Assembly: GCA_031423795.1 (NCBI GenBank)
Contig: JANPGH010000123.1
Location: 14,206-78,205, forward strand
Origin: Elusimicrobiota bacterium
GTDB taxonomy: Bacteria; Elusimicrobiota; Elusimicrobia; UBA1565; UBA9628
Reading direction: 5' to 3'
DNA length: 64,000 nucleotides
Shown here: positions 7,684 to 30,419 of the stretch, in pieces
Position numbering within the stretch: the stretch's first letter is position 1
Layout: each line of letters opens with the position of its first letter
Made by a program: the position numbers and the translations under genes
Notes under the pieces: model-generated
What the model was told of the DNA's origin: nothing
The model's input: only the letters and a program-made list of their open reading frames with translations
Database searches by the model: none

Positions 7684-7687
7684 ACGC

Positions 7688-8149: not shown

Positions 8150-9210
8150 TGGATTGCTCCTCTCATGATCGTGCCGCCGCCCAAGACGAAGCTGCCGTCG
8201 TAGAACACCGCGGCCTGGCCCGGCGCCGGCGCGCGTTGCGGCGCGTCGAAACGCACGAGAACCGTGCCGTCGGCGTTTAAGGACAGTCCGGCGGACGCCG
8301 GACTGTGTCGATGACGCACCCGCACTTGCGCGCGCACCGAACTAGCGGGCACACCCGCGGTCCAGGTGACGCTGCCGGCGACCAGAGAAGACGCCATCAC
8401 GTCGTTTTCGTCGCCGACGACCAATGTGTTCGTCTCGGGCTTCATACGCACGACATACAGCGGATCAGGCGATGTAACGCCAAGTCCCTTGCGCTGTCCG
8501 ACGGTGTAAGAGGCCAGACCGGAATGTTCGCCGATCACCCTGCCGTCGGTCGATTCAATGGGTCCTGGCATCAAGGTCGCAGCTCCGGCAGACTCGGACC
8601 GCGACGCGACAAAGCCGCGCACATCCCGCTCGGGAACGAAGCAGGTTTCCATGCTTTCCGGCTTGTCGGCGGTGCGCAATCTTAAGGTCCGCGCGCGTGC
8701 GCGCACTTCGTCCTTGGTCAGCGCGCCGACGGGGAACTCCGCCTTCGCCAGCTCTTTGGCCGTCAATGTATAAAGGAAGTAGGTTTGGTCCTTGCGCACA
8801 TCGATGGACGTAGACAGACGTCCATCGATGATTCTTGCATAGTGCCCGGTCGCGACCTTCCCACAGCCCCAGGCCTCGGCTAAATGCAGCAAGTGGCCGA
8901 ACTTCACCGATCGGTTACATTCGACGCACGGATTGGGAGTCGTGCCGTCAAGATAAGCGGCGACGTACGGCTTAATGACTTTCTGCTCGAAGCGTTCGGA
9001 CATGTCGGCCACGTAGTGGGGAATGCCCAGGGCCTCGCAGACACGCTTGGCGTCATCCACGTCCGCCGGAGAGCCGCAGCAGCCGAATCCCGTCGCCGCG
9101 CGCGGCAAGAGCTTCATCGTCACGCCGACGACGTCCTCGCCCCGCTCCTTAAGAATGGCGGCGGCCACCGAACTATCCACACCACCACTCATCGCCGCCA
9201 AAATCCTCAT
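8146..9210 (-). CDS. mnmA: tRNA 2-thiouridine(34) synthase MnmA
   Basis: MRILAAMSGGVDSSVAAAILKERGEDVVGVTMKL PP-loop motif. The start was moved to ATG 9210, which forms an ATGA overlap with the nifS stop (track ORF starts at 9258). Confidence 0.85.
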   Translation of the reverse strand: MRILAAMSGGVDSSVAAAILKERGEDVVGVTMKLLPRAATGFGCCGSPADVDDAKRVCEALGIPHYVADMSERFEQKVIKPYVAAYLDGTTPNPCVECNRSVKFGHLLHLAEAWGCGKVATGHYARIIDGRLSTSIDVRKDQTYFLYTLTAKELAKAEFPVGALTKDEVRARARTLRLRTADKPESMETCFVPERDVRGFVASRSESAGAATLMPGPIESTDGRVIGEHSGLASYTVGQRKGLGVTSPDPLYVVRMKPETNTLVVGDENDVMASSLVAGSVTWTAGVPASSVRAQVRVRHRHSPASAGLSLNADGTVLVRFDAPQRAPAPGQAAVFYDGSFVLGGGTIMRGAIQ

Positions 9211-10361
9211 GCCACGCTCGCCACCGACCGCAGACGACCGATCGCCACCGGCAGGCACTTCAAAAATCGGTCGATATCGGCCTCAGTCGTTCCCCAACCC
9301 ACGGAAATCCTCAAGGATCCGGCGGCAAGCCCGGGGTCAATTCCCATCGCCGTGAGGACGTGCGACGCAAGCGATGCCCCCGAGGAGCAGGCCGGACCGC
9401 TGGACACGCAGAATCCTTCGAGGTCAAGGGCCACGACCAAGTGGTGCCCATCGACCCCGCTGAAGACAAAATTGGAGGTATTCGGCAGGCGCCGCTCCGG
9501 GTGGCCATTGAGGCGCGCATCGCTAATTTTCAGCACGCCGGCTTCCAGGCGTCGCCGAAGAACCAATGCGTGAGCGGCACTCGACTTTAATTCGCGCAAA
9601 GCCAGCTCGCATGCCACGCCGAGGGCGGCGATGCTCGCGACGTTCTCCGTTCCGCCCCGCCTTTCCTTCTCTTGATGGCCGGTCAGGACCGGCGACAGTC
9701 GCACTCCGCGGCGCACGTATAGGGCACCGACCCCTTTCGGTGCGTTGAGCTTGTGCCCAGACAACGAGAGCATGTCGACTCCCAAAGCTTTCACATCGAC
9801 GGCGACCTTGCCTAGGGATTGCACGGCGTCGGTATGCATCAATGCGCCGCGCGCGCGCGCCAAGGCGGCGATCTCGGCGACCGGCTGCAGGACGCCGGTC
9901 TCGTTGTTGGCGTGCATCACGCTGACGACGATCGTGCGCTCATCAATCGACGCGCGAAGCGCGTCGACGGCGACGACGCCATCCGGGCTGCACGGCGCTT
10001 CCCCAATATCGAATCCTCGATGGCGCAATTCGCTCAGCTGACCGCGCACTGCGTCATGCTCGATCCGCGTTGCCAGGACTGTCCCGCGGCCGTTTTTCTC
10101 GGCGCGAGCCTGCCATGCGGCGCCTGAAATCGCGAAGACGTCGGATTCGGTGCCGCCGGAAGTGAAGATGATTTCGGATTGATCGGCAGCCCCGATCAAC
10201 GAGGCGACCGACTCGCGAGCGCGCTCGACGGCCGCCCGCGCCTTTTGTCCCAGCGAGTAGACCGAATTCGGATTGCCGTACCCGTCCCTCAGCCACGGCA
10301 ACATCGCATCGAGGACTTCCGGTCGGATCGGGGTGGTCGCGTTGTGGTCGAGGTAGGTCAT
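9207..10361 (-). CDS. nifS: cysteine desulfurase (NifS/IscS class)
   Basis: MTYLDHNATTPIRPEVLDAM...SGGTESD...SLSGHKLNAPKGVGALYVR (PLP lysine motif)...SSGPACSSG. Confidence 0.85.
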   Translation of the reverse strand: MTYLDHNATTPIRPEVLDAMLPWLRDGYGNPNSVYSLGQKARAAVERARESVASLIGAADQSEIIFTSGGTESDVFAISGAAWQARAEKNGRGTVLATRIEHDAVRGQLSELRHRGFDIGEAPCSPDGVVAVDALRASIDERTIVVSVMHANNETGVLQPVAEIAALARARGALMHTDAVQSLGKVAVDVKALGVDMLSLSGHKLNAPKGVGALYVRRGVRLSPVLTGHQEKERRGGTENVASIAALGVACELALRELKSSAAHALVLRRRLEAGVLKISDARLNGHPERRLPNTSNFVFSGVDGHHLVVALDLEGFCVSSGPACSSGASLASHVLTAMGIDPGLAAGSLRISVGWGTTEADIDRFLKCLPVAIGRLRSVASVA

Positions 10362-11068
10362 TGCCCGAAGCCGAAACCCTTAAAGAGGTCTTCTTCCCCG
10401 CCCGCGGCTTTCCCCGCGGGGGCACCTTCCGCGGCGGGTTTCGGTTCCTCAGCGGCAGGCTTGGTTCCAGGCAGGGTGGCGCCCTTAGGCGCGCCTTTGG
10501 CAGTCACGCCCGATACGATCGTTTTGCGCACGCCTTCGGCGAAAATAATCCGGCCTTTTTTGCGGTCGTAAAACAGGCGGAATTGGCTTTGCTTGGTCTG
10601 CGGTTCGTAAGCCTTACCAAGGTTGTCGCGCTCCTGCTCCCAACCGGGGTTGTAGAGCAAGCGTCCGCGCAAATCGACCTTGTTGCTCAACACCGGAAGG
10701 CTGAAACGGATGCGATAAAATCCGTTGGTATCGGAAACGCCGGGATCGAACGATGAGGTGGCAAATCCGGAGGGCCGGGCCTCGCCTTCCTCCACAACGT
10801 TCTCACCGCTGGCGACCGCGCGCACGACCACACCTTGAATGGGGTTGTCCTTGTAGTCCGTGATCACGCCTTGAATATATCCGTCGAGAAATTGCGTCTT
10901 CTGCGCGACAGAAAACACCAACAACTCGGTGGTTCCGGTCAGCTTTTCGGTGATCGAAAGATCGACGACCCGACCCTCGGCGAAATCCTCGACCACCACA
11001 TTCTTGTTCGAGGGTCCACAGGCGGCGAGCAAAACGAGAAGCCCGACGGTAAAAACACGGCGCAGCAT
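10358..11068 (-). CDS. lipoprotein with carboxypeptidase-regulatory-like beta-sandwich and Pro/Ala/Lys-rich tail
   Basis: MLRRVFTVGLLVLLAAC lipobox. GVVVRAV...TDTNGFYRIRF motif. 19 nt downstream of motB; its stop overlaps the nifS start. Confidence 0.5.
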   Translation of the reverse strand: MLRRVFTVGLLVLLAACGPSNKNVVVEDFAEGRVVDLSITEKLTGTTELLVFSVAQKTQFLDGYIQGVITDYKDNPIQGVVVRAVASGENVVEEGEARPSGFATSSFDPGVSDTNGFYRIRFSLPVLSNKVDLRGRLLYNPGWEQERDNLGKAYEPQTKQSQFRLFYDRKKGRIIFAEGVRKTIVSGVTAKGAPKGATLPGTKPAAEEPKPAAEGAPAGKAAGGEEDLFKGFGFGQ

Positions 11069-11087
11069 GGTTTATTTTACCATTTGA

Positions 11088-11840
11088 CTAGCGTTTCTCG
11101 GCGACAGGCACGGGCGCCTGAGCGTCGGCAGGAGCCGTTGTCGCCGCCGCTTCTGTCGGGGGTGCCGCCGCGGACTTGGCCGCCTTCTCGGCGTTTTCCT
11201 TGGCCAAAGTCGGTTTCGGAATCGATGCGCTTTTCACGAAAAAAACCACGCGCCGATTTTTGGCCCTCCCCTCCGGGGTCGCGTTCGGCACGACGGGCCG
11301 CGCGTCTCCATAACCGACGGCGCCGAGGTGTCCGGCTGGGATCCCGTATTTTTCAATGAGCAGCCGGGCCACGCTGGTCGCACGCGCAGTAGAAAGCTCC
11401 CAGTTCGAGTCGAAATACATGTTGTGGATCGGTTGGTCGTCGGTGTGGCCCTCGACTAAGATCTCGTGATCAGCGCCGAGCCTGCGCAAATTCGGCACGA
11501 GCAACGCGAGCTTGGCGTCCATTTCGGCGGTGGGTTCGGCCGCCCCTGACCCGAAGAACGGGATTCCCCCCTGTTCTTCGATCGAAATCTTGAGACCGTC
11601 CTTGTCGACTGTCACCTCGCCCTTCATTTTGCCCTTGTCCATCATGTCCTTCACGTCGGAAGCAGCCTTCTGGACATTTTTGTTCAAGGCCGCCGATAAC
11701 GCGTAGAGAATGACAAAGAAACAGACGAGCTCCGTCATCAAGTCGGCGTAATTGACCAGCCAGGCGGGCGCCGGGTGCCCGATCTGGCAGACTTTCGGAT
11801 CACTCTCGTCGATGAATCCTCTCGGGGCGCGCAGGGGCAC
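11088..11840 (-). CDS. motB: MotB-type stator protein (OmpA-like peptidoglycan-binding C-terminus)
   Basis: VNYADLMTELVCFFVILYAL (TM helix with the conserved Asp). GHTDDQPI...NWELSTARATSVARLL...NRRVVFFV is an OmpA/MotB domain. Confidence 0.85.
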   Translation of the reverse strand: MPLRAPRGFIDESDPKVCQIGHPAPAWLVNYADLMTELVCFFVILYALSAALNKNVQKAASDVKDMMDKGKMKGEVTVDKDGLKISIEEQGGIPFFGSGAAEPTAEMDAKLALLVPNLRRLGADHEILVEGHTDDQPIHNMYFDSNWELSTARATSVARLLIEKYGIPAGHLGAVGYGDARPVVPNATPEGRAKNRRVVFFVKSASIPKPTLAKENAEKAAKSAAAPPTEAAATTAPADAQAPVPVAEKR

Positions 11841-11849
11841 AATATCTCC

Positions 11850-12638
11850 TTAAGCCGCGGGTGTGGCGGATTTGACGATAATGCGTTCAGACGGGGCGAG
11901 ATAGGCCTTCAAGTTCGCCTCGACGACCGACGGGGTGGCGCCGCTTTGCAGCAGCAAGACACCGCGGATGATAATCTCCTTTACCAGAAGCTCCTCCTCT
12001 GAGCGACGCCGCAGCTTTCCGCCCATCGGCAAGAAAATTAAATAGCCAGATCCCAGGCCGTAGAACGCCGCCGCCAAGGCCAGCGCCATGCGGCGCGGCA
12101 CGGCCGCGACGTCCTCGATCGACGAGAGCATCATGATCATGCCAAGCACAGTGCCAATGATCCCGAACGCCGGCGAATAGGTGCCCATCGCGTTGAGGAT
12201 TTCCTGGCCACCCTTGTGACGCTCGCGAATGAAGCCTATTTCGGTCTCGAGCATGTTGCGGATGAATTCGTGATCCGCGCCATCGACGACCAACTGCACG
12301 CCGCGCCGCAGGAAATCGCTCTTGATTCCCCTGACGTCGTTCTGTAGCGCCAGGAACCCCTCTTTTTTGGCCTTCTGTGAGAGGCTAACGAAGGTCCCGA
12401 CGATGTCAGAAGTGTCCTCGCCGTGGGACATCAGCGTCTTCTTGATCACTTTCCCGACGCCGATGACCTGGCTCAGTGGATAATTGACCAGGGTCGCACA
12501 GACGGTTCCTCCCATGACCATCAGAAGCGCTTCCATGTTCATGAAAGGCTTGAATCCCGAAACACCCTCGCTCATGAAGATTGAGCCGATGCACAGGCCG
12601 AAGAAAATGATGATTCCAGCGATGGTTGCGATGTCCAT
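11850..12638 (-). CDS. motA: MotA/PomA-type stator protein
   Basis: 262 aa with a four-TM pattern. C-terminal AFGIIGTVLGMIMML...ALAAAFYGLGSGYLIFLPMGGKL is typical of the MotA/TolQ/ExbB family. Lies 9 nt upstream of motB. Confidence 0.85.
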   Translation of the reverse strand: MDIATIAGIIIFFGLCIGSIFMSEGVSGFKPFMNMEALLMVMGGTVCATLVNYPLSQVIGVGKVIKKTLMSHGEDTSDIVGTFVSLSQKAKKEGFLALQNDVRGIKSDFLRRGVQLVVDGADHEFIRNMLETEIGFIRERHKGGQEILNAMGTYSPAFGIIGTVLGMIMMLSSIEDVAAVPRRMALALAAAFYGLGSGYLIFLPMGGKLRRRSEEELLVKEIIIRGVLLLQSGATPSVVEANLKAYLAPSERIIVKSATPAA

Positions 12639-12662
12639 GTATGTAAAGCTCCTTAAATTCCC

Positions 12663-12893
12663 TTAACTTGCTTCGCGAATGTAACCAGCGATGGGATTGA
12701 CCGGCTTGCCTGAAGTATTGACGGCGCGCCGGTACTCGACGACTTTGGCGACGACTTCTTCCGATTTTTCGCGGACCAGGACCTTATTGCCGGTCGCCAG
12801 GTGCACGACCGTCTGGGGCCCGGGCTCGAGCGTCTCGATGAGTTCGGCGTTGACGACGACTTCGCCGCCGTTTAGTTTATGAAGGACGATCAC
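12663..12893 (-). CDS. flbD: FlbD-like small flagellar protein
   Basis: MIVLHKLNGGEVVVNAELIETLEPGPQTVVHLATGNKVLVREKSEEVVAKVVEYRR matches the FlbD pattern. The start overlaps the stop of the upstream gene. Confidence 0.75.
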   Translation of the reverse strand: MIVLHKLNGGEVVVNAELIETLEPGPQTVVHLATGNKVLVREKSEEVVAKVVEYRRAVNTSGKPVNPIAGYIREAS

Positions 12894-15301
12894 TGCTCCC
12901 CCTTCCCGAAAAGGCGCTTCGTCCAGGGCGTCTGGCGGGTCTCCTCGATCTTGCCTTCGAGCTGGGCGGCGCGGGTGGCGGCACCCTTCTCGGCCTCGCG
13001 CGCCGCGGCAGCCTCGTCGGTAAGCCGCTTGATCTCCGCGCGCATCGTCTCAAGCTCGCGATTGGACGCGTGCGACGACTCCTCCGTCGCGCGACGCGCT
13101 TCTTGGGCCTTTTTCAATTCACTCTCCGCTCGCTCATGAGCAGTGCGAGCTTCGGCCTCCAAGGCCGACTTCTGCGCGGCGATGTCGGCCTCGAAACGCT
13201 CGCGTTCTGCGCGGATCGACTCCGCTGCGCGCTCACGGTCGGATTGTATCTGTTTTTCGGATTCCGTCCGCGTTTTCTCGAGCACGGCGCGTAGCTGCTC
13301 GATCTGCAATTCCCTTGAGCGCAGGCGTTCAGCCACGGCCTTCTCGAAATCCACCCGCATCGGAGTGAGCTCTTGGTACGCGGCGTCGCGCTCTCCTTGA
13401 GCCCGCTGGGCGTTGACGGATTCCCGTTGCAGTTGAAGGCGCGATTGTTCGACCGCTTCCTGGAGATTTCTCATCGAAACGGATTGCGCAGCACTTAAGC
13501 GTTCGGCCTCCACTTTTTCAGCTTGGAGCTCCGTGATTCGGGCCTCGGCGCGCGTTGCGCGCTCGCGCAAATCGGCCAGCGCAGAACGCGTCGACGCCGC
13601 CTGGGCCCGCTCGGTCTCGAGCGTGCGCTCCGCCTCGATGCGGCGATTTGACTCATATTCGCGAGTGGCGTCGAGCTGTTGGATCTTCTGCGCCGAAGTC
13701 TCATGGCGCAGGCGTTCGCCGGCCAACTCCGCTTCGAGCGCGTGCATCCGCTCATACCAACTCGAGTCCTTGGTCGAAAGTTCCCGCCGCAGGCGCGCGA
13801 TCTCGCCTTCCAGCTCGACTCGCGCGGCGTCGGAATCGGTCCGGCCGGCTTGATGGCGCGCGAGCACTTCCCTCTCGATCTCGGCGCGCAATTTCGTCTC
13901 ATGGAGCCGGATCGAGGCCTCGTTCTCCTGACGCAGCTGATCGGCGATTTTCGACGCACGCTGATTGATCTCGTCTTGCGCGAGAATGCGTAGACGGGCT
14001 TTTTCGGCGTCGACGCTTTGCAGCGCCGAGGATTGAGCTTCCGCGCGGACCTCCTTTTCCCGCTCGACCCACTTGCGCTGCAAGACGACGAACTCCGCCT
14101 TGTAACGTTCCTGGGTCCGCTCCCAATCGCCGGAAGCTTTCTTGAGTTCTATCAGCTGCGAACGCGACGCGGCGGATTGACGTTCCAGCGCGCCGCATAC
14201 AGCCCGCAGGCGCTGAAGCTCGCTTTGGGCGCGCTCTGCTATTGATTTGTGCTGAGCAATATCGGCCTCGTACTCAACTTTTGCGCGGCGCAGTTCGGCG
14301 TCTTTTTCCGCGTCGAAGCGCTGCTTGACCGTCGCAAAATCGCGCTGCAAGCGGTCGACATCGGCCTGCAAACGCTCCTCGCGCTCGCGAGAGCTCGAGC
14401 GCAAACTCGTCAAATCCCGTTCCAGCCTCTCTTGGACCAACGCTCCGCCCTGTCGGGCCAGCGTCAGGTCCGCGCGCAACTGGATTGCCTCCTTTTCGCG
14501 CTCGGCGGCGTTTTGCAGGCGAGCTAACGCCTCGGCCCGGTCGCGGGACAACTCCGAGACGCGTTCATCGAGGATTTTCTTCTCCGAAGACACTTTGGCT
14601 AAATCCGTGTCGGCGCCTTTGAGCTTCTCGGCAAGCGACCGCAGATTGCGGATCTCATCATCCTTTGCCATCGCGATTTTCTGCCAACCCGCTTTTTCTT
14701 CCAGCCACCGACGCTCCATTTCTTGGATGCGCAGCGCGAAATGACCCTCTACTTCCTTCTCCTGCGACTCGCGGGCGCCCATCTGATTTTTGAGCGTCGA
14801 TACCCATGTCTCGCGCTCTTGGGCTAAGCGCGACTCCAATTCCAGCGCCCGCTTTTCCAGTTTAAGCTTTGCTTCCTCAGAATCCTGCTCGCGACGGTCC
14901 CGCCGCAATTTATCTTGTAGTTCTTTGAGGCTGACCTCGACTTTCGCGGCCGTGGTCTGCTCCTCCTGACTCTTGAGCTGGTTGACGAGAAGCTTCTCTC
15001 TCTCGTCCTGCAGCCGCCTTTGCATCTCCTCAAGTTTCTTTTCGTAATCGTTCTTGATCTTATCGACTTTCTCGGCGGCCTCTTTTTCCAGGTCACGCGC
15101 CGGCGCCGGTGCGCCTGAAGGCATTCCGGGCAATCTCATTCCCATCGGGGGAAATGACATGCCGCCTCCCGGCAGCGGAGGCGGAGGCACCATCCCCATT
15201 GCTGGTAAAGGAGGTGGAACGGGCGGCCGACCCGCTGAAGCCGGCAGCGGCGGCGGCACGGGAAGTTTCGGTGGAATCTTGTCGTCAGGCGCCATGGTCA
15301 T
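12890..15301 (-). CDS. 803-aa coiled-coil protein with polyproline N-terminus
   Basis: N-terminus contains PVPPPLP, PVPPPLP and VPPPPLP. The remainder is E/R/K/L/A/Q-rich heptad-like sequence. The AAGGAG Shine-Dalgarno sequence fits the third codon ATG at 15295 better than 15301. Confidence 0.6.
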   Translation of the reverse strand: MTMAPDDKIPPKLPVPPPLPASAGRPPVPPPLPAMGMVPPPPLPGGGMSFPPMGMRLPGMPSGAPAPARDLEKEAAEKVDKIKNDYEKKLEEMQRRLQDEREKLLVNQLKSQEEQTTAAKVEVSLKELQDKLRRDRREQDSEEAKLKLEKRALELESRLAQERETWVSTLKNQMGARESQEKEVEGHFALRIQEMERRWLEEKAGWQKIAMAKDDEIRNLRSLAEKLKGADTDLAKVSSEKKILDERVSELSRDRAEALARLQNAAEREKEAIQLRADLTLARQGGALVQERLERDLTSLRSSSREREERLQADVDRLQRDFATVKQRFDAEKDAELRRAKVEYEADIAQHKSIAERAQSELQRLRAVCGALERQSAASRSQLIELKKASGDWERTQERYKAEFVVLQRKWVEREKEVRAEAQSSALQSVDAEKARLRILAQDEINQRASKIADQLRQENEASIRLHETKLRAEIEREVLARHQAGRTDSDAARVELEGEIARLRRELSTKDSSWYERMHALEAELAGERLRHETSAQKIQQLDATREYESNRRIEAERTLETERAQAASTRSALADLRERATRAEARITELQAEKVEAERLSAAQSVSMRNLQEAVEQSRLQLQRESVNAQRAQGERDAAYQELTPMRVDFEKAVAERLRSRELQIEQLRAVLEKTRTESEKQIQSDRERAAESIRAERERFEADIAAQKSALEAEARTAHERAESELKKAQEARRATEESSHASNRELETMRAEIKRLTDEAAAAREAEKGAATRAAQLEGKIEETRQTPWTKRLFGKGEQ

Positions 15302-15320
15302 CTCTCCTTAATGTTATCGG

Positions 15321-17360
15321 TTAAATCGCTTGGGCCTTCATCCCGTCGACCCATTGACGCAGGCCGGGATCGGGATTTTTGACCAGTACCGCCTCAAATT
15401 CCGCGATCGCCTCGCGCTGTCTCCCCATCTGCACGTAACACGTCCCCAAATACTGCCGCGCTTGCCAGAGTGAAGGATCCTGCGAGAGCGCGTATTCCAA
15501 ATACTGCGCCGCCTGCGGGAACTGCCCGGCGTCATGGCTTTGCACTCCCGCCGAGAAATAGGTTTGCGCCTGCGACGCCTGCGCCGGTGTGGCAAGTGCT
15601 GCGGGTGGAAGTGCTACGGGGGCCGCCGCATGCGCAGCGGCTCCCCCGCCCACCGCGGGACCCGAGCCCGCGCTGAGCAATTGCGCAACGGCCTGCTCGG
15701 CTGCGCGCGTGCGAGGTTCGTACTTGGCTCCCCGGTCGGAAGCCACTTCCTCGGTAAATCCGGAGAATGCGCCTCCACGGCTCTCACGGACGCTCACTTT
15801 TCCTTCCTTTTCCAAAACCTTGACGACGTCCATGATCTTCGAGCGCTCATCCTCGACCTGGCCGGCACTCAATCCCGAGGCGTACTCGATGGATTCCTTG
15901 AGCAAGGACGCCGCACCCGACGACATGTTCGACAGGAACTTGTTCAGGATGTCCGGGGCGGCGCCCTGGAGTGCCTTGGCCATCGATTCGGTCTTGAGTT
16001 CGCGCACGATCACTTGCATGTCGCGATCTGGGAAACCCACCACGTCCTCGAAGCTCATAATAAATTTGCGCACGCGCTGATAAACTTCGGGCTTCTCGTT
16101 CTTAAGATACTCCAGGATATTTGCCCGCGTCATCGTGTCCGCCTCATCGAGCAGTTGTGTCAGGCGCTCCATCCCGCCGACGACGAAATCCACGCTTTCC
16201 TTGATGTCGGCGTCTATCGCCATCAACTGTTCGCGCGTCACTTGGCGAAGTTTCAGGGCCTCGATGGCCACCTTCGCCTGCAGTTCCAGCGGCAACGCGG
16301 TTAGCGTCGCGCGCGCGAGATCCGACTTCATGTAGCTGAGCACGACGGCGATCAGCCACGGCTCGTCACCGCGAACCAGGAACAGGTTCCCGAGTCGCTT
16401 AAAGTTCTCCTCCGTGATGTAGGTGAACGGCTCGAACTTCTTCATGGCGTCCTCCACTTCTTCTTCCTCCGGCGGCGGAGGAGGCGCGTCGTCTGGCTTA
16501 CGGCCCATCATCACATCCAAAGCGGCGGCAGATTCCGACTCCTCGGTGCCGTCTCCCGATCCGTCCTCATCCTCGCCAGTGTCGAGCTTGGACTCGACGT
16601 TAACTTCGGCCGCCGGCTTTTCGCGCAACGCGGCGACATACTGACGGAAGAAGCGGGCGAGCGGTCCGAACAGGAACGAAAGAAAAAGCAGGAGGAGCAG
16701 CGCGTACAAAAGCGGCAGGTACACCGAGGGTTTCTTAAGGTCTTCCTTCCAATCCACCAACGGCGGCTTGTCGAATTGGGTCGGGCGGAAATCGATTTGA
16801 TCGTCGCCGAGCTTCTGGTAGTGGCTCATCGCGTCCTTGATGCGGTCGCGAACGACGTCCCGGGCTTTTTTGTCCTTAAGGACGCCGTCGTCGTGAATCA
16901 CGGTGACTTGGAGCCTTTTAAAGATGGGCTTGACGGAAAACCGCTGTTCGTCGACGCCTTTCATCTGTTGGGCTTGCTGGGCTTGCGATTGCTCGGGCTT
17001 TTCCGGATTTTGCTGGGCGGTGATCGTCTTGGGCTTGGGGATGCCAGGCAAGACGAACGTCGTCTGCATCCCACCGCGCGGCGCAGGCGCCTTCTCCTTG
17101 TATTTTTCGGCCACGCCCATACCGGTGCGCGTGGACTCCTGGCTCTCCGCCTTGACCTCCATTTCCACGTCGACGAACGCGGCGGCCTTGCCCTTGCCGA
17201 GCATGGTATCCAACACATCGTGTTGAATGCGCATTTCCGATTCGGCCTTTACCCGCGTCTGCTCCTGCAGCAGCGCCAAATCGGGCGCGACAACGGCCGC
17301 AAGCGCCGGAGTGAGTACCGGCGCCCCTAAGAGCAGGGCGGCGAGCAAATACATTTGCAT
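15321..17360 (-). CDS. FliF(YscJ)-like periplasmic segment + TM + FliG middle/C-terminal-like domains + TPR, in one polypeptide
   Basis: aa 1-25 signal/TM. aa ~40-200 carry VLDTMLGKGKAAAFVDVEMEV and FKRLQVTVIHDDG...RIKDAMSH...GDDQIDF (FliF ring-motif-like). TM at ~213-235. aa ~310-525 carry GGMERLTQLLDEAD... and FIMSFEDVVGFPDRDMQVIVRELKTESMAKALQGAAPDILNKFLSNMSSGAASLLKESIEY...KVLEKEGKV (FliG_M/FliG_C-like). aa ~600-679 are TPRs. Confidence 0.65.
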   Translation of the reverse strand: MQMYLLAALLLGAPVLTPALAAVVAPDLALLQEQTRVKAESEMRIQHDVLDTMLGKGKAAAFVDVEMEVKAESQESTRTGMGVAEKYKEKAPAPRGGMQTTFVLPGIPKPKTITAQQNPEKPEQSQAQQAQQMKGVDEQRFSVKPIFKRLQVTVIHDDGVLKDKKARDVVRDRIKDAMSHYQKLGDDQIDFRPTQFDKPPLVDWKEDLKKPSVYLPLLYALLLLLFLSFLFGPLARFFRQYVAALREKPAAEVNVESKLDTGEDEDGSGDGTEESESAAALDVMMGRKPDDAPPPPPEEEEVEDAMKKFEPFTYITEENFKRLGNLFLVRGDEPWLIAVVLSYMKSDLARATLTALPLELQAKVAIEALKLRQVTREQLMAIDADIKESVDFVVGGMERLTQLLDEADTMTRANILEYLKNEKPEVYQRVRKFIMSFEDVVGFPDRDMQVIVRELKTESMAKALQGAAPDILNKFLSNMSSGAASLLKESIEYASGLSAGQVEDERSKIMDVVKVLEKEGKVSVRESRGGAFSGFTEEVASDRGAKYEPRTRAAEQAVAQLLSAGSGPAVGGGAAAHAAAPVALPPAALATPAQASQAQTYFSAGVQSHDAGQFPQAAQYLEYALSQDPSLWQARQYLGTCYVQMGRQREAIAEFEAVLVKNPDPGLRQWVDGMKAQAI

Positions 17361-17414
17361 TCCTCTTAAGTGTAAGGGGGTGCTGTTACGAAATCAAGAC
17401 AGAAAGACCCGAAA

Positions 17415-19046
17415 TTAGGGTTTCAAGGATTGGAGAAAGTCCCTGACCGAGCGGTTGTTCGGGTCCAGTTCCAGGACCTTGCGCCAAATCGCGACCGCTT
17501 TGTCTTTCTGGTCCATCAAGAAGAACGACGATCCCATGATCTCGAGCGCGGTCACGTTGTTGGGCTCCAAGTCCAGGACGTCTTGCGCGCGGCGCACCGC
17601 GGAGTCGTAATGGCCCTCGTAGATGGACTGCCGGGCGTCGAAGACCTTTTGGTCGACCCACGTGAACTGCTCGGGGCCCTCCAGCCGGCGCGTTACATCG
17701 GCAACCCCCGCTTCCTTCTCGACCATGTTCAACAGGCCGAGCAATTTCTCGTCGCGCGGGTTCTTGTTGAACGCGTAGCGCAGCGCGTTGACCGAGACCT
17801 TGAGGTCGCGCCCGTCGACGTAGGCGATAGCACCCTTGCGCACGAAGGTTTGCGCTTCCTCTCCGCCGGTGGCTGCCGGGACATAGTTGGTCACCGCAGA
17901 CAGGCGCGCGATCATGGTCTCGACTTGCTTGTTGCCGGGTGCTGCGTCCTGGGCCTGGTTGAACTTCTGTGCGGCCAAGGCGAAGTTTCCTTCCTGGAAA
18001 GCTTCCATTCCCGCTTTTACGAAATTCTTGACTTGCGCCGTCGACCGGTCGGACCGAGATTGGCCGAAGCGGAACGTGATCGAAATGCGCGTGCTGGACC
18101 CCAGGTCATGGATTCCTTGGGCGAGGTCGAGCGTAAAGCTGTTGAAATTGAGTCCGAAGCCGAAATCCGTCTCTTGGATCGACGGCAGCCCCAACAAGCC
18201 GAAGCGGAACGCGAACCAGCGAGAAACCCAATATTCGCCGCCAAAACGCAGCTCGGTCGAGGCGCTGAGCGATTTTTGGATGTCCGCTGAGAGCATCAGG
18301 CGCTCCTTGAACAGGCGCATCGAGTTGCCGAGCTTAATTGTCACCGGGTACTTGTCCTGGGTGTCGCCCTGGGTCTGGGAGAACACATTCTGCATTCCCA
18401 GCCCCACGCGGTAGGACGCTCCCATCGTCTTCATCATCCCTAAGTCCAAGGCCTTGGTGTTGTCGGCGGACCCGCCGACCTTGCGCGTGACCTGTTTGAC
18501 GGTCATGCCGAACAGCGTCGTCTCCGTAATGCCTTTGGCCCAAGACAGCGCCATCGCCTGCTGCTGGTCTTGGAAGCTGCCGTTGGTCTTCACCGAGGTC
18601 ACATCGCCTGATGTCGGGTTGTATACGGCGTCTACCTGCTCGAATCCGCTACCCGTGAACTGAGTCATGCTCAGCGCGAACACCGAGCCGCTCTTAGTTG
18701 GGTGGGCATAGCTGAAATACGTAAGTTTGGTCTGCACGTATAGTGTGGCCTGCATCGTCGTCAACTCTTTGCGCTGGAGCTGGGCCAGGCCGGCCGGGTT
18801 CCAATACGCGGCGGAAGCGTCGTCCGAGATGCCGTAGTAGGCACCGCCCATGGCCATCGCGCGGCCACCGACGCCGAAATTCATGAACTGACCGGTAACA
18901 CCACCGCTCTGGGCCGAGGCGTAAGCGGCGCAAAGGCTCAAAAACAGGCCTATTAGCACGCGCGCGCCACCGACGGCCTTTACTACGGCCGACGCAGGCG
19001 AGACGCGCTTGAGAGCGCGCCCCCTCACGTAGTTATAGGGCATCAC
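17415..19046 (-). CDS. outer-membrane beta-barrel (PorV/UPF0164-like N-terminal motif) with C-terminal TPR domain
   Basis: Signal peptide ...LSLCAAYASAQ. GGRAMAMGGAYYGISDDASAAYWNPAGLAQL motif, then alternating beta-strand pattern ending ...RISITFRF, followed by ~190 aa of TPR-like repeats. The first codon is GTG 19046, followed by ATG 19043. Confidence 0.6.
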   Translation of the reverse strand: MMPYNYVRGRALKRVSPASAVVKAVGGARVLIGLFLSLCAAYASAQSGGVTGQFMNFGVGGRAMAMGGAYYGISDDASAAYWNPAGLAQLQRKELTTMQATLYVQTKLTYFSYAHPTKSGSVFALSMTQFTGSGFEQVDAVYNPTSGDVTSVKTNGSFQDQQQAMALSWAKGITETTLFGMTVKQVTRKVGGSADNTKALDLGMMKTMGASYRVGLGMQNVFSQTQGDTQDKYPVTIKLGNSMRLFKERLMLSADIQKSLSASTELRFGGEYWVSRWFAFRFGLLGLPSIQETDFGFGLNFNSFTLDLAQGIHDLGSSTRISITFRFGQSRSDRSTAQVKNFVKAGMEAFQEGNFALAAQKFNQAQDAAPGNKQVETMIARLSAVTNYVPAATGGEEAQTFVRKGAIAYVDGRDLKVSVNALRYAFNKNPRDEKLLGLLNMVEKEAGVADVTRRLEGPEQFTWVDQKVFDARQSIYEGHYDSAVRRAQDVLDLEPNNVTALEIMGSSFFLMDQKDKAVAIWRKVLELDPNNRSVRDFLQSLKP

Positions 19047-19125
19047 AATTCGGTAGCCTGACGCTCCCGGCGCCCGGGAGTCACGGCTTTGCGCCCCTGG
19101 CTTGCGCCAAGTTTGCCGTTATCGC
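19047..19125 (-). promoter_or_regulatory. candidate c-di-GMP-I (GEMM-I) riboswitch aptamer in the operon leader
   Basis: Minus-strand RNA reads AACGGCAAAC-UUGGC[GCAA]GCCAG-GGGCGCAAAGCC-GUGACUCCCGG[GCG]CCGGGAGCGUCAGGC-UACCGAAUUGUGAUG. By eye this matches the hallmarks recalled from V. cholerae Vc2 (GGGCAAACC, a GNRA-capped hairpin, GGGACGCAAAGCC, a long second hairpin, and the tail ..UUACCG). The tail ends 7 nt before the start codon. No covariance-model scan was run. Confidence 0.55.
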
Positions 19126-19215
19126 CTATCCGTATCTACTGCTCACGCCGCGCCCCAGGATCATCCACCCCCGATCCGAAAGCGGCGTGCAACACGGCTA
19201 GGATGCAACTCTCGT

Positions 19216-19243
19216 ATTGTAACGGGAATATGGCACCTGTCAA
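19216..19243 (-). promoter_or_regulatory. sigma70-like promoter for the 19046..7688 operon
   Basis: The minus strand reads TTGACA (19243-19238), a 16-nt spacer, then TACAAT (19221-19216). Predicted leader is ~160 nt and contains the nested hairpin 19144..19189 (CACGCCGC...GCGGCGUG with inner GGAUC/GAUCC) and the riboswitch-like segment. Confidence 0.55.
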
Positions 19244-19368
19244 GGCCCAGATTCCCTCTGAAACGACGCGTTTTTTTGACTTTTAGGTGGAACGCCCACG
19301 CCCTTTAATTCCGCCGGCCGCCGAATCCGCGGCGATCCCATTTTTTCCATATTTTTATATCGAAACAC

Positions 19369-25574: not shown

Positions 25575-26780
25575 TCAGGTAATTTCGCGCATTTCGAACT
25601 GCATCGTTGTCGCACCACAGTCTATCAAGTCTCCTTCCTTGAGGAGAACCGAACCGGAAATCTTGGAGCCATTGACCAGAGGATATTTGTCGGTCACCGC
25701 CACTAAAACGAACCCCTCGGTTTTCCGATGAATGGACGCGGCCACTTCCGGGGCCGAACCGAAAAGACCCGCCCCCTTTATTGGAATTTGAACCCTATCG
25801 GATTTTCCGATATAAGTGGACGTTCCACGAAGTTCATACTCGCTGGCGCCGATGACGCCTTTGAGGATCCGTAACCAGGCCTGCCGGCGCTCCGTGGCCA
25901 CGGCCTTCGGCGGCAACGCACCGCTGTCGTTCTTCGATTCGGTCTCTTGCGACAAGGCGAGATCGACCACTTCGGCCTTTACGTTCGGTAGCGAGCTTTC
26001 GGGTTTGGCCACGAGGGGATCAAAGGCGTCGAGCTTATCCACCGCGGGCTCGGCTTTGGGTGCCATTGGTTCGGGTTTTAGAGCCGCCGGTTCTGGTTTG
26101 TCGACGGCGGGCTGTGGCTCCGGATCGATCTCGAGATTGGATTTGGGCGGAAACGTCGCCGGCTTCGCCGACGACTCCGTTACGGGTTCGAATTTCGGCA
26201 ATGCTCCCGACGCGGAACCCGACTTCGGCACGCTCGCCGAAGGGAATTCCATCTTCGGCAGATTGGCGGCCGGGAACTCCATTTTCGAGGAGGCTTTGGG
26301 CAGATTTTCCGCCGGCAGGATCGTACCGGGAAGGGGCGGTGGGGACGCCTTGGGGACGCCCGCCGGAGGCACTGCCTTTGGCGTCAGAACGACCGGCGAT
26401 TGCGTCTTGGGGCCTGGCAGCGGCGGATCTGCTTTCGGCTTGACCTGGCCCGGGGCGTCGGTCGGAGAAATCGGCAAAGGCATCGTCGGCGGCTCGGCTT
26501 CGATGAAAACCAGCGTGTGTTTGGCCACGCTGATGATGTCGTGATGACGCAACCCCGCCTTCTTGACTCTCTTGTCGTTGACGAAAGTTCCATTCGTCGA
26601 TTCCAAATCTTCGACGAAGACGGACCCGTTCTGTACGGTGATCCTGCAATGGTGCCCCGAAACAGCGGGATTTTCGATCACCAGATCATTGTCGGGCTTG
26701 CGCCCGACCGACAGCGTGCTCTTGGAAAGCGGAATTTCCTTGATTACCGCTGCGTTGAACTTAAGAAGAAGCTTCTGCAT
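25575..26780 (-). CDS. FHA-domain protein (N-terminal FHA, Pro-rich linker, C-terminal FHA-like domain)
   Basis: LSVGRKPDNDLVIENPAVSGHHCRITVQNGSVFVEDLESTNGTFVND is a canonical FHA domain. The C-terminal YIGKSDRVQIPI...ASIHRK...PLVNGSKI is FHA-like. Confidence 0.8.
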   Translation of the reverse strand: MQKLLLKFNAAVIKEIPLSKSTLSVGRKPDNDLVIENPAVSGHHCRITVQNGSVFVEDLESTNGTFVNDKRVKKAGLRHHDIISVAKHTLVFIEAEPPTMPLPISPTDAPGQVKPKADPPLPGPKTQSPVVLTPKAVPPAGVPKASPPPLPGTILPAENLPKASSKMEFPAANLPKMEFPSASVPKSGSASGALPKFEPVTESSAKPATFPPKSNLEIDPEPQPAVDKPEPAALKPEPMAPKAEPAVDKLDAFDPLVAKPESSLPNVKAEVVDLALSQETESKNDSGALPPKAVATERRQAWLRILKGVIGASEYELRGTSTYIGKSDRVQIPIKGAGLFGSAPEVAASIHRKTEGFVLVAVTDKYPLVNGSKISGSVLLKEGDLIDCGATTMQFEMREIT

Positions 26781-26799
26781 CGATCATTCTCCCTCATTG

Positions 26800-27615
26800 T
26801 CAGCGCTTGAATAGGCGCGAGACAAATCCTCTCACACGTCCTTCCCTACGACCCGACAAGCCCGCGGCCACGACTGTGACGTTGTCCACGCCTCCGGCTG
26901 CACGCGTTTTCAAAATCAGAGCCTCCACAATGAGCTGCGGCTCCCGCAGCGCCGAAATTGTGCGCGAAATCTCTTGGTCCGACACCATTTTCGACAGACC
27001 ATCCGTGGCGACGAGAACGATGTCGCCCGGCAACAACTGATGATCGGTCACGTCCACTTGGACGACCCCTTCGCTGCCCAGCGCGCGCGTAAGGATGTTC
27101 TGCAGGTTAGAACGAGAAGCGTCTTCCATGCTGATCTGGCCGCGGCGGACCTGCTCGCCGACCAAGGAATGGTCCTGCGTCAATTGTGAGAGCTCCTCCT
27201 GGCGATGCAAATAAAGTCGGCTGTCGCCGACATGGGCGACCGTCACCGAACTTGAGTCTATGATCGCCGCAACCACCGTCGTTCCCATGCCCGAATCTTT
27301 CGGGAAAGCCTGGCCTTTACGGAAAATCACCTCATTGGCCGACTGGACGCAAAATTCGAGTTGACGCCCACGCGGACTCAACCCCGGGCTGCCTCCCCGA
27401 GGAAGGAAAGGCGGATTGCTTGCGTTTATCTTGCGCGCGAATTCGACGATCGTTTTGGTCGCGATATCGCTGGCCACCTCACCCGAATTATGGCCCCCCA
27501 TACCGTCAGCGACGACGATCAAACCCAATCGGGCGTCGACGGCGAAATTGTCCTCGTTATTCTTGCGCACACATCCTGGATCTGTAGCGCCCGTGATCAC
27601 CAAAGTGTCCCTCAT
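26800..27615 (-). CDS. PP2C-family Ser/Thr phosphatase
   Basis: TDPGCVRKNNEDNF...VADGMGGHNSGEVAS...VATDGLSKMVSD...GGVDNVTVV. Confidence 0.85.
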   Translation of the reverse strand: MRDTLVITGATDPGCVRKNNEDNFAVDARLGLIVVADGMGGHNSGEVASDIATKTIVEFARKINASNPPFLPRGGSPGLSPRGRQLEFCVQSANEVIFRKGQAFPKDSGMGTTVVAAIIDSSSVTVAHVGDSRLYLHRQEELSQLTQDHSLVGEQVRRGQISMEDASRSNLQNILTRALGSEGVVQVDVTDHQLLPGDIVLVATDGLSKMVSDQEISRTISALREPQLIVEALILKTRAAGGVDNVTVVAAGLSGRREGRVRGFVSRLFKR

Positions 27616-30419
27616 TGGGGCTCCGTCGGCGGCGGGGTGAGCCGCACGGTTTGATCCGGACCGGTGCTCGTCGGAGTTTTGGGCATCGGCGTGGGCATCG
27701 ACTGATATTTCGACAGCTCGCGACCCGCCGCTCGGAGGATGGCGTCGAGCTCTGGCAAATCGCCGGAGGGAAACTCGCCCGCTTTCGAGGCGAACGCGGG
27801 CGGAGTCATTATCGGCGCCATGCGCATGGTCTCCTCTTCAAAGACCGGCGAGGTGATCGGACTCGTTGTCCGGTTGATATCGGCCTTCGGGGCGCTGATG
27901 ACCACAACGCTCGATGTGAGCGCGGTACGAAGTGCTGCCGCCATCTCTGACCCCCGCTGGAAACGATCATCGGGGTTTTTCTGAAGCCCGCGCTCAACGA
28001 CCCCCTTCAGAGCGGCGGGAATGGCCGGATTGATAACACGGATGTCGGGAGTCGGGTCGTTGGCAATCTGGAATAGAAGAGTTCCAATGCCGTCGCCGCC
28101 CTTGAACGGCTTTTCCCCGGTCAAAAGTTCGAAGAGCGCGACCGTCAACGAAAATAAATCGGAACGACCATCGACTTTGCGCCCTGCAACCTGTTCGGGG
28201 CTCATGTAGGAGGGCGTGCCCATCACGGTTCCTGTAGCGGTGTTCGACGAGGCGGTGATGCGGGCAATCCCGAAATCGGCCACCCGCACCGAGCCGTCCT
28301 TGATCAGCATAATATTCGCGGGCTTAATGTCGCGGTGCACGATTCCCTGTTTGTGGGCGTAGTCGAGGGCATCGGCGACGGTGGAGATATATTCAACGAC
28401 CTTGCCCATCGGCAAGAGCGTGTCCTTGGACGTGTTCTTCGTCAAATCCTGGCCATCGAGCAATTCCATCGCGATATACGCGACGTCATTTTCCTCTCCG
28501 GCGTCGAAAATCCGCACGATGTTCGGATGATTGAGCGTTCCGGCCGACTCGGCTTCGCGAAAAAACCGTTCTTTGATCTCCTTGACCGACCCGACGTTGG
28601 AATCCCCCTCCAACATCAAAGTTTTGATCGCGACCATCCGATTAATGTTCGGATCACGTCCGAGATACACGACTCCCATCGCACCGCGGCCCAATTCTTT
28701 TTCAATCTCGTACCGCCCTAACGTGGGCTGAGTCACACCGTCGGTCAGCAGTAGCGTGCTCTTCTTTTTGACTTCGCCGATGGTCCCGAATACGGCCCCG
28801 TCGGCCGCCGCCTTGAGCATGGTTATCTTCGCTGTGATGTCTCGGTAATTTGGATCCTCGGTGGCGATGTGCTCCAGAACGGACGCCGCCTTGGCGAGCT
28901 GGCGTTTGCGTTCAAAATCGAGGGCCAAATTATACAGCGCTTCTTTCAAATTCTGGTCGAGCGGGCATAAGCGGAATTTATCGAAGGCAAGATCAAACAT
29001 CCCCTGGCCTTGAAAGGACAAGCCCAACATCTTGTTCGTTTCAATAGCGGACGTTTCGGCTAGCTCCTTGCCCTTTTCCGTCACCAGGATTTTTTTAGAG
29101 ATGGCGAAGACAAATCCAGCCAACAGCAGCGCAAGCGGATGCCCGATCTTGACCCATTCGCCGGAAACGAAGAAGAAAGTTCCCGCGGACGCAATTGCGA
29201 CAGCGATCATCGTCGAAAGAACCACGCCCCAAAAAGCACGCAAGCGCGGAAGGCCCAATATCACGAAAAGACCGACGGCTACTATTGTGGCGACCTCCAC
29301 AAGGCGTGCCCACAGCGGACGCGTGACAAAACGTTGGTGTATGAAGTTCTCGACGGCATGGGCCATAATTTCGACAGACGAAACTTCGCCGGCCATCGGC
29401 GTCGAAAAATTGGACTGCGTTCTTGACGCGGTCAGGCCCAGCAGCACGATCTTATCCTTGAAAAAATCTGGCGCGATCGACGCGGTCAAAAGCTGTTGAT
29501 AGGGAATGCGCTTAATCACCTGCGCGCTTGGTGGACCGAGGAAGGTCACGGAAGTGAGTCCATCTTCGTCGAGCGGAACGTGAAGCTTCCCCGCCTGCAA
29601 CCCCGCTCCCGGCGTGAAATGAAGGTCCTCTGGGGTCAGTCCGAAATAACTCATCGCGACGCGCAAAGCAAACGACGGGATCAAGGACTTATCGTATTGG
29701 TACAGCGGTGCGGCTCGACGTACGACGCCATCGGATTCCGGAAGCAAATTCGCGTGGCCGATCCCGCCAGCCGCAGCCGCAAACGACTCGATCGGAGCGA
29801 TGATTTTTTCGGCCATCGGCAGCGATTCTTCGCGAATCGGAACTGCAATGGCGCAGCGCGCAATCTCTGGGGACAAAGCGGGCGATTTAGCTCCGGTCGG
29901 GTTTGCCACGAACAAAAGCGGCATTATGACGTTTCCCGCAGCCGAGACGGACGCCAGCAACCGGGCGTCCGAATCAAGCGCCGATGACACATCCGAGAAT
30001 TCCTTGGAAAAGTCCACTCCGCGCTGGACTAGTTCGCGCTTGACCAGCAATTGCTTGTAACGACCTTCGAGCTGCCGGATTTGATTCAAGCCCTGATTTT
30101 CTTCAGGCTCCGAGAAAAGAATGTTCAGCCCGATGACCCGCGGCTTATCCTGCGCGATGCGGTCCACCGCGTCGGCAATCGCAGACCGCGGCCACGGCCA
30201 GCGGCCTTTTTGGGCGATCGCGTCGTCATCGATGGCGACGATGACGATTTCCTCAGGAGATTTTAACGTTTCCATTAACTTCGAACGCAGGTCGTATGCC
30301 TTGAATTCGACGGCCTCAAGCAACGGCCCCGCGAACACTCCAAAATAGGAGCCCAAGACGAAAAGGGTGAGCGCCGAACCGATGCCCACGTCAAGAGCAA
30401 GAGATTTATTGGCGTTCAT
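27612..30419 (-). CDS. CHASE2 sensor domain / transmembrane / Ser-Thr protein kinase
   Basis: The N-terminal ~380 aa fit a CHASE2 pattern (KAYDLRSKL...IVIVAIDDDAIAQKGRWPWPRS...), followed by TM helices. Kinase core: LGRGAMGVVYLGRD...VAIKTL...HRDIKPANIML...DFGIAR...GTPSYMSPE. ATGA overlap with the PP2C gene. Confidence 0.8.
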   Translation of the reverse strand: MNANKSLALDVGIGSALTLFVLGSYFGVFAGPLLEAVEFKAYDLRSKLMETLKSPEEIVIVAIDDDAIAQKGRWPWPRSAIADAVDRIAQDKPRVIGLNILFSEPEENQGLNQIRQLEGRYKQLLVKRELVQRGVDFSKEFSDVSSALDSDARLLASVSAAGNVIMPLLFVANPTGAKSPALSPEIARCAIAVPIREESLPMAEKIIAPIESFAAAAGGIGHANLLPESDGVVRRAAPLYQYDKSLIPSFALRVAMSYFGLTPEDLHFTPGAGLQAGKLHVPLDEDGLTSVTFLGPPSAQVIKRIPYQQLLTASIAPDFFKDKIVLLGLTASRTQSNFSTPMAGEVSSVEIMAHAVENFIHQRFVTRPLWARLVEVATIVAVGLFVILGLPRLRAFWGVVLSTMIAVAIASAGTFFFVSGEWVKIGHPLALLLAGFVFAISKKILVTEKGKELAETSAIETNKMLGLSFQGQGMFDLAFDKFRLCPLDQNLKEALYNLALDFERKRQLAKAASVLEHIATEDPNYRDITAKITMLKAAADGAVFGTIGEVKKKSTLLLTDGVTQPTLGRYEIEKELGRGAMGVVYLGRDPNINRMVAIKTLMLEGDSNVGSVKEIKERFFREAESAGTLNHPNIVRIFDAGEENDVAYIAMELLDGQDLTKNTSKDTLLPMGKVVEYISTVADALDYAHKQGIVHRDIKPANIMLIKDGSVRVADFGIARITASSNTATGTVMGTPSYMSPEQVAGRKVDGRSDLFSLTVALFELLTGEKPFKGGDGIGTLLFQIANDPTPDIRVINPAIPAALKGVVERGLQKNPDDRFQRGSEMAAALRTALTSSVVVISAPKADINRTTSPITSPVFEEETMRMAPIMTPPAFASKAGEFPSGDLPELDAILRAAGRELSKYQSMPTPMPKTPTSTGPDQTVRLTPPPTEPQ

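Follow-up and report, generated by a model that had tools for sequence, protein, structure and literature searches.

Introduction

Class I cyclic di-GMP (c-di-GMP-I, or GEMM-I) riboswitches are the closest described counterparts of the element reported here, an aptamer on the minus strand of a 64,000-nucleotide (nt) stretch of an Elusimicrobiota bacterium genome (contig JANPGH010000123.1 of assembly GCA_031423795.1; "the window" from here on) that heads an operon for a non-flagellar rotor-stator machine. In Clostridioides difficile, the Cd1 riboswitch in the flgB leader switches off the flagellar operon through premature transcription termination. The two have in common that a class I switch heads a long motor-protein operon and provides one second-messenger input for a whole machine. 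However, Cd1 terminates transcription, whereas there is no terminator here and control would act at initiation, and the operon here is non-flagellar, without genes for an export apparatus, hook, or filament.

Vc2, from the tfoY leader of Vibrio cholerae, shares with the window its aptamer family, its helix order, and the bases G20, A47, and C92 (PMC4744006, PMC5888326), together with the C44-G83 inter-helix pair, a GNRA loop on the first hairpin, and control without an intrinsic terminator. The two differ in that loop (GAAA in Vc2, GCAA here), in position 43 (A in Vc2, G here), which is ordinary variation, and in the second hairpin, where the window lacks the 11-nt receptor columns. In addition, the start codon here lies 5 nt from the aptamer without a Shine-Dalgarno (SD) sequence, and an extra 5' domain of ~85 nt precedes the aptamer. 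The GEMM-Ib riboswitches of Geobacter, which sense cyclic GMP-AMP (cGAMP), have the same fold but carry A20 where the window has G20; among the relatives of our locus, A20 occurs only in L041 and L047. Another relative, the c-di-GMP-I-GGC family (RF03167), scores well against the window and some of its orthologs, but the G47 that defines it is not found here.

The aptamer itself is textbook, a further example of a well-known riboswitch class, and its value lies in its context. Free-living Elusimicrobiota have no flagellar structural genes, yet they carry motAB and fliG homologues of unclear role (bioRxiv 10.1101/2022.07.08.499144), and our literature search found nothing that links Elusimicrobia to c-di-GMP riboswitches or describes a non-flagellar FliG machine, its operon, or its riboswitch. 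We found that in every locus examined, motAB and fliG homologues form one operon with a PorV-like protein and that this operon is always headed by a c-di-GMP riboswitch, which argues that the FliG-MotAB machine belongs to the motile-versus-sessile decision and ties an unexplained machine to a bacterial lifestyle signal. Interest therefore attaches to the invariable link between the riboswitch and an uncharacterized rotor-stator operon, to a start codon that abuts the aptamer without an SD sequence, and to the 5' domain with its candidate pseudoknot. The leader also offers an easy experimental entry to the machine and a compact model for riboswitch control of an SD-less start codon, with a pseudoknot that can be tested.

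Identification of the aptamer

When the whole window was scanned against 4227 Rfam families at curated thresholds, only three matches were returned, namely two tRNAs and a c-di-GMP-I element. The latter (RF01051) runs from 19127 to 19049 on the minus strand and covers model positions 1-87 of 87, with 62.4 bits against a gathering score of 35 and an E value of 7.9e-10. The c-di-GMP-II family (RF01786) had no match in the window at its gathering score or in 18900-19300 at E<=10, and this permissive search of 18900-19300 brought up no family outside the c-di-GMP-I clan, including in the flanks. The element is a genuine member of the c-di-GMP-I class, far beyond chance, as had been called in an earlier sequence-only reading of this DNA that had proposed RF01051, with c-di-GMP-II as the control, for checking the call. 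The broader interpretation offered there, which joined this family to a c-di-GMP-type base, a missing SD sequence, and motor genes downstream, is likewise supported by our analysis.

The motifs on which that reading relied all lie on the minus strand where it had placed them: ACGGCAAAC (19119-19111), a 6-base-pair (bp) GNRA hairpin formed by CUUGGC and GCCAGG around GCAA (19111-19096), the junction string GGGCGCAAAGCC (19096-19085), and the aptamer tail UACCGAAUUGUGAUG (19055-19041). Its long interrupted hairpin (19088-19055) also stands, but the bulge does not, since the register consistent with Rfam places it at C19063-G19062 rather than G19064-C19063; G19062 in this bulge is G83, the partner of C44. 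Similarly, a c-di-GMP-type G had been correctly recognized but assigned to the nucleotide directly before CAAAC, whereas G20 is the first G of GGCAAAC (19117), 2 nt before CAAAC, with both nucleotides being G. The consensus tetraloop-receptor columns (CUAA/uAu) are deleted in the alignment of the window to RF01051, while the first hairpin keeps a GNRA loop whose G and final A are invariant in orthologs. The aptamer is in the sense orientation within a 5' leader, where a promoter (19243-19216), the aptamer, and the ATG at 19043 follow one another on the minus strand.

In c-di-GMP-I aptamers, G20, A47, and C92 are the ligand-contacting positions (PMC4744006, PMC5888326), C44 (three positions before A47) pairs with G83 (PMC4744006, PMC5888326, PMC3764141), and the positions conserved above 95% in the class include C22, A23, A25, G42, G45, A48, and A49 (PMC3764141). 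The window carries the canonical c-di-GMP triad (Table 1). Its single consistent departure from the Rfam consensus is a G at position 43, which falls outside the >95% conserved set (PMC3764141). Since our metagenome scan found the same G in 12 unrelated GEMM-I riboswitches, we regard G43 as ordinary variation and rejected the idea that it is a clade hallmark making an alternative GGGC partner; in the orthologs, G43 never varies.

Conservation in Elusimicrobia

Homologues of the downstream FliG-like protein come nearly all from Elusimicrobiota metagenome-assembled genomes. A scan of one genome per species returned 53 loci, all in Elusimicrobia, with protein identities of 41-83%. The aptamer is present in 47 of the 47 loci that include the region upstream of gene 1, the first gene of the operon; a signature pattern found 45 of these, and Rfam confirmed 11, including the two that the pattern had missed (L043 and L020). 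There is one copy per locus in the 148 kb scanned, and where the locus extends far enough, it always precedes the same six genes.

Within these 47 leaders, which include the window, the c-di-GMP-type base at the specificity position is widely kept, with G20 in 45 sequences and A in two, while A47 and C92 are kept in all 47. A48, A49, C44, G45, and G83 are invariant, as are C22, A23, A25, and G42. Covariation points to the same structure, since 96.3% of pair cells in the alignment of the 47 sequences are standard pairs compared to 30-47% when partners are slid by 1-3 columns, and compensatory changes on both sides occur in 21 of 32 pairs. None of 500 shuffles reached the observed values. Both-side changes are seen in 5/6 pairs of P1b and 3/5 pairs of the apical part of P2, with 98-100% of cells paired, while P1 and P1a are invariant and thus uninformative.

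The two riboswitches with A rather than G at position 20 (L041:678-759 and L047:8198-8275; AAUAGCAAAC) carry the change that marks cGAMP-sensing GEMM-Ib, which may reflect a ligand switch in front of the same operon. The element of L020 (L020:3502-3626) has a ~60-nt insertion in its first aptamer hairpin, lacks the 5' domain, scores 35.9 bits, barely above the cut-off, and has an AUGCCCG string just upstream.

Promoter and start codon

The sigma-70-type promoter on the minus strand is the sole strong promoter-like site in 7000-19300. It is conserved and lies ~165 nt upstream of gene 1, with the aptamer 90 nt downstream of it, and we infer a transcription start near 19209. The sequence-only reading had allowed a GTG or an ATG as the start codon of gene 1, and the mechanically called open reading frame (ORF) begins at GTG 19046. 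However, the true start is the ATG at 19043 and not the GTG, because in the 47 orthologs an ATG lies past the CCGAA tail of the aptamer, by 1-7 nt in 46 and by 14 nt in one, and opens the full frame of ~540 amino acids (aa).

As had been noticed from the sequence, this start lacks an SD sequence, and we found that the absence is conserved. An SD-like 4-mer precedes 19/26 other well-supported window genes but only 3/47 orthologous gene-1 starts, and at two of these three starts the 4-mer is the aptamer's own strand. Within the operon, an AAGGAG precedes each of genes 2-5. No intrinsic terminator was found between the aptamer and gene 1, where the space is insufficient for one. The first ~60 nt of gene 1 (18960-19040) are strongly structured and encode a ~20-aa extension before a normal signal peptide; the main reason for this N-terminal extension may lie at the RNA level. 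Where the window has its 19023-19000 hairpin, other orthologs form a different one (GGGGC-UUGA-CCCCU).

The 5' domain and a candidate pseudoknot

Upstream of the aptamer, comparison of the leaders predicts a conserved structured domain of ~85 nt that is new here. About 40 of the 47 orthologs fold on their own into the same three-tier architecture, in which the outer stem ends at the base directly preceding the 5' strand of P1. The domain has no Rfam match even at E<=10, and the most divergent orthologs (L020, L023, L041, L047, and L043) lack it or have a reduced form. Since the MAFFT alignment of this region was one column out of register for subgroups, we used an alignment-light scan to search for pairing partners.

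This comparison suggests a candidate pseudoknot that joins the 5' domain to the start-codon region, which is also new and which we put forward provisionally. The AUG is followed by a GCCC that the orthologs conserve in either of two reading-frame registers (AUG-CCC and AUG-GCC-C). This GCCC is retained even where a mutated AUG has led to a shifted start (L026 and L007), and it is missing from four orthologs without the 5' domain (L020, L023, L041, and L047), a pattern that argues for selection on the RNA rather than the protein. Its partner would be the internal loop of the 5' domain, where 19156-19151 can pair with 19042-19037; with the 5' domain intact this pairing would be non-nested, and hence a pseudoknot. 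The partners covary (AGGGCA/UGCCCU, AGCGGG(U/C)/GCCCGCU, AUGGGCC/GGCCCAU, GGGCC/GGCCC, and GGCCG/UGGCC), and in an alignment-free duplex test cognate pairs reached -11.4 kcal/mol compared to -10.05 kcal/mol for non-cognate pairs (permutation p<=0.0002). In an unbiased scan of ~1300 segment pairs, the true helices came out on top (z -11.6 to -6.7), and the candidate pseudoknot was the strongest non-nested signal (z -6.6 and -5.8), ahead of P2 (z -5.5). When the alignment was anchored on the invariant GGG/CCC cores, 75% of pseudoknot cells paired compared to 28-39% in slid controls, and the covariation score was 0.197 compared to 0.02-0.06; the 4-bp core itself never varies, about one-third of the sequences lack any extension of it, and relatedness among the sequences inflates statistics based on shuffling.

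Alternative partners of the start region fared worse. The apical G-rich loop (p 0.06) and a coding-region G-run (p 0.56; scan z -4.4) were rejected, the G-run of the aptamer gave no cognate signal in the duplex test, and pairing of GCAU in the 5' tail with AUGC is weak and is not kept in the AUGG class. It is possible, though we think it rather doubtful, that the leader forms an undescribed composite platform in which a 5' hairpin domain pseudoknots an SD-less start codon, and that c-di-GMP in this way gates a FliG-MotAB rotary machine which spans the envelope and is not flagellar, in a phylum without flagella. If true, the machine would gain its first regulatory handle.

Proposed mechanism and alternatives

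We hypothesize that the element is a functional class I c-di-GMP riboswitch that controls translation initiation of gene 1 and represses it when the ligand is bound, a reading that we consider probable. The transcript would start at the sigma-70 promoter, placing the riboswitch in the 5' leader of a long operon mRNA, where it would act on gene 1 and, by way of that gene, probably on the entire PorV-like/FliG-like/MotAB operon. Given the lack of both a terminator and an SD sequence, and a tight spacer of 1-7 nt, the initiation step is the obvious target. The 30S subunit covers roughly 20 nt upstream of a start codon, and here the ~20 nt upstream of ATG 19043 are the 3' strands of P1 and P2. Because no more than 7 nt separate the SD-less start from the 3' strand of P1, the 30S subunit would require an aptamer opened at its 3' side, and c-di-GMP binding would lock P1 and the three-helix junction, occlude the initiation region, and lower expression. 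In most orthologs, the 5' domain probably reinforces this lock through base pairs between its internal loop and a short stretch made up of the AUG's G and the bases after it, which would work if P1 tethers the start region near the 5' domain. The orthologs without the 5' domain (L020, L023, L041, and L047) have an A-rich, unstructured start region directly after the aptamer, so ligand binding could only reduce access there, which supports repression. In addition, c-di-GMP generally represses motility genes.

Several observations weigh against this reading. P1 is only 2-3 bp long, and the ORFs of this 64-kb window that we scanned with Pfam contain no GGDEF, EAL, HD-GYP, or PilZ domain. When free folds were compared to aptamer-enforced folds in the 47 leaders, the start was more open in the bound state in 20, less open in 8, and unchanged in 19, such that secondary-structure modeling predicts no consistent change in start accessibility. 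If the pseudoknot and P1 cannot coexist, the ligand would free the start codon. Finally, for this operon, the argument from c-di-GMP and motility would hold only by analogy.

Some of the same observations would fit a riboswitch that binds c-di-GMP but activates. In such a switch, the ligand-free RNA would hide its start by pairing it with the 5'-domain internal loop (or with a different G-run), and P1 formation would free it. The covarying pairing of 19156-19151 with 19042-19037 includes the G of the AUG, and by geometric inference a 7-11-nt linker would need to span a stacked helix of ~20 bp for the pairing and P1 to coexist; the aptamer-enforced fold opens the start in more orthologs than it closes, and GEMM-I switches that activate are known, Vc1 of V. 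cholerae being one (PMC4744006). We nevertheless think activation unlikely, since the orthologs without the 5' domain and GCCC have no evident sequestering partner, yet their aptamer still abuts the AUG, since about one-third of the sequences offer only the 4-bp core of the pseudoknot, and since the differences between modeled folds are small. With c-di-GMP as the ligand, the main output could also be Rho-dependent termination or mRNA decay in the leader or gene 1, given that there is no intrinsic terminator and that the leader and the early part of the coding sequence form a long, structured stretch. By an established principle, Rho would have access to a first gene that lacks an SD sequence and goes untranslated. 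However, the aptamer and the AUG are kept at a tight, conserved distance and the SD sequence has been lost, both of which point to initiation, and such effects are most simply a consequence of blocked translation rather than its replacement, so we regard this as an improbable main output.

A different ligand, either 3'3'-cGAMP or whatever ligand the c-di-GMP-I-GGC class senses, is suggested by the Rfam scores. In a search with the short stretch, the best clan match to the window is RF03167 (58.7 bits), just below its cut-off of 59, which six orthologs exceed (61-67 bits; L006, L011, L015, L022, L023, and L041), and in seven related loci the element is assigned to RF01051 or RF03167 depending on the locus; A20 in L041 and L047 likewise resembles the cGAMP-sensing variants. 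On the other hand, the Rfam consensus of RF03167, GACGCGAAG, from which we read its defining base, has G at position 47 (GCGAAG), while the corresponding string in the window and its relatives is GGCGCAAAG, where this base is A (GCAAAG) in 47/47. We therefore rejected the GGC-variant reading and take the near-threshold match of the window as a cross-hit. The cGAMP class needs A20, whereas the window has G19117 together with C92, and overall we consider a ligand other than c-di-GMP very unlikely here. RF03167 can thus out-score RF01051 on sequences with the canonical A47, and automatic annotation would mislabel the six orthologs. That the element is a chance resemblance or a decayed relic without a regulatory role has a negligible probability and is, on the comparative sequence data, already contradicted: besides the low E value of the Rfam match, all 47 loci conserve the element, with compensatory base changes, next to proteins whose identity falls as low as 41%.

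Table 1. Coordinates in the window of the riboswitch leader and the operon that it heads.
Feature	Position	Strand	Basis
-35 box TTGACA	19238..19243	-	TTGACA-16 nt-TACAAT, 11/12 matches; conserved in orthologs
-10 box TACAAT	19216..19221	-	TACACT/TATACT at same alignment columns in orthologs
5' accessory domain, ~85 nt	19125..19209	-	Predicted fold common to ~40/47 orthologs, covarying stems
5' domain tail GUUGCAU, 7-nt single-stranded	5' end of 19209-19125	-	Precedes three-tier hairpin
5' domain outer stem	19202-19194 with 19133-19125	-	Compensatory changes in 8/8 pairs
5' domain middle stem	19189-19182 with 19151-19144	-	Compensatory changes
5' domain apical stem	19177-19173 with 19162-19158	-	Compensatory changes in 4/5 pairs
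5' domain G-rich apical loop	19172-19163	-	Conserved GGGGUUG motif
Candidate pseudoknot, upstream arm GGGGCG	19151..19156	-	3' side of 5'-domain internal loop
c-di-GMP-I (GEMM-I) aptamer	19049..19127	-	RF01051 match and ortholog covariation
Aptamer P1	C19124-G19051, G19123-C19052	-	Part of RF01051 aptamer
Aptamer P1a	G19116/C19115 with G19092/C19091	-	Part of RF01051 aptamer
Aptamer P1b	19111-19106 with 19101-19096, GCAA loop 19105-19102	-	Part of RF01051 aptamer
Aptamer P2	19088-19055	-	Part of RF01051 aptamer
Aptamer key bases	G20=19117, C44=19093, A47=19090, G83=19062, C92=19053	-	Conserved in ortholog alignment
A/U-rich spacer UUGUG, 5 nt	19044..19048	-	Between aptamer tail and ATG, without SD
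ATG start codon, gene 1	19041..19043	-	Frame open ~540 aa in orthologs
Candidate pseudoknot, downstream arm UGCCCU	19037..19042	-	Last two bases of AUG and next four
10-bp hairpin in first 45 nt of coding sequence (GGGGCGCGCU-CUCA-AGCGCGUCUC)	19000..19023	-	ViennaRNA minimum-free-energy fold
Gene 1, PorV/PorQ-family outer-membrane beta-barrel, C-terminal TPR, long signal peptide	17415..19043	-	NF033709 101 bits (cut-off 90) and TPR matches
Gene 2, FliG-like: signal peptide, periplasmic domain, one membrane helix, FliG middle and C-terminal domains, TPR	15321..17354	-	
Gene 3, 803 aa: proline-rich N-terminus, then ~700 aa charged coiled-coil-like	12890..15301	-	Translation; syntenic
Gene 4, flagellar-type MotA/PomA stator subunit, 262 aa	11850..12638	-	MotA_ExbB 3.3e-27; PDB 8ucs/6ysf E ~1e-54
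Gene 5, MotB: plug, channel aspartate in YADLMT, OmpA-like peptidoglycan-binding domain	11088..11840	-	
Gene 6, 236-aa lipoprotein (LLAAC lipobox)	10358..11068	-	Syntenic in orthologs

The downstream operon

Genes 1-6 (Table 1) are syntenic in every related locus that extends far enough, and the motor operon recognized in the sequence-only reading is borne out by Pfam and PDB matches showing that MotA, MotB, and a FliG-like protein are encoded. In gene 2, Pfam matches FliG_C (1.2e-23) and FliG_M (1.1e-8), residues 308-528 match the FliG structure 1lkv (E 3.4e-30), and the periplasmic domain has a weak FliF-C-like match (E 0.007). An identical 677-aa protein (P0001) exists in public data and starts two codons past the start of our 679-aa ORF. 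Gene 3 had no Pfam, NCBIfam, PADLOC, or PDB match, and gene 6 had no family match. Genes for an export apparatus, hook, or filament were not found in the operon, which is therefore not a flagellar one. We also rejected the Zorya anti-phage system, since there were no matches to ZorA, ZorC, or ZorD and only a generic similarity of MotB to ZorB, and the size and flagellar type of MotA count against it as well.

We compared the charged residues of the rotor-stator interface using positions that we take to be those of Escherichia coli numbering, read through alignments to T. maritima FliG and Clostridium MotA. The ridge charges of FliG are mostly lost in gene 2 (K264Q, R281G, D289S, and R297S), with D288 kept as E, and the MotA of gene 4 keeps a positive residue at position 90 (K) and has Q at position 98. 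From these residues, the E98-R281 pair appears to be lost on both sides and the R90-D288 pair to be kept, a pattern that fits a cognate but divergent interface.

After gene 6 (7688-10361, minus strand) come an IscS-like cysteine desulfurase gene and mnmA with overlapping stop and start codons, followed by a 153-aa lipoprotein-like gene. Five relatives (L028, L029, L034, L038, and L053) lack iscS and mnmA and have the 153-aa gene directly after gene 6; judging from this arrangement, the 153-aa gene may belong to the machine.

Other features of the window

Motif (regex) matches to GGDEF, EAL, and HD-GYP in the window and the 53 loci were false, falling in gene 1 or carrying no Pfam domain. A signaling cluster on the minus strand (25575-30419) encodes an FHA-domain protein, a PP2C phosphatase, and a 935-aa Ser/Thr protein kinase with a CHASE2 sensor. 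Next to the two tRNA genes (31437-31508, minus strand; 31600-31674, plus strand) are mobile-element-type genes, and the region 31437-42841 as a whole, with a large serine recombinase, a terminase large-subunit-like protein, a tyrosine integrase, and a 1148-aa ORF without a family match, is probably an integrated prophage or mobile element. Beyond it, genes for metal handling (43201-58173) include a heavy-metal P-type ATPase with YHS/HMBD domains, an MgtC/DUF4010 protein, a CusCBA-like outer-membrane/HlyD/RND efflux operon, and a second cation P-type ATPase.

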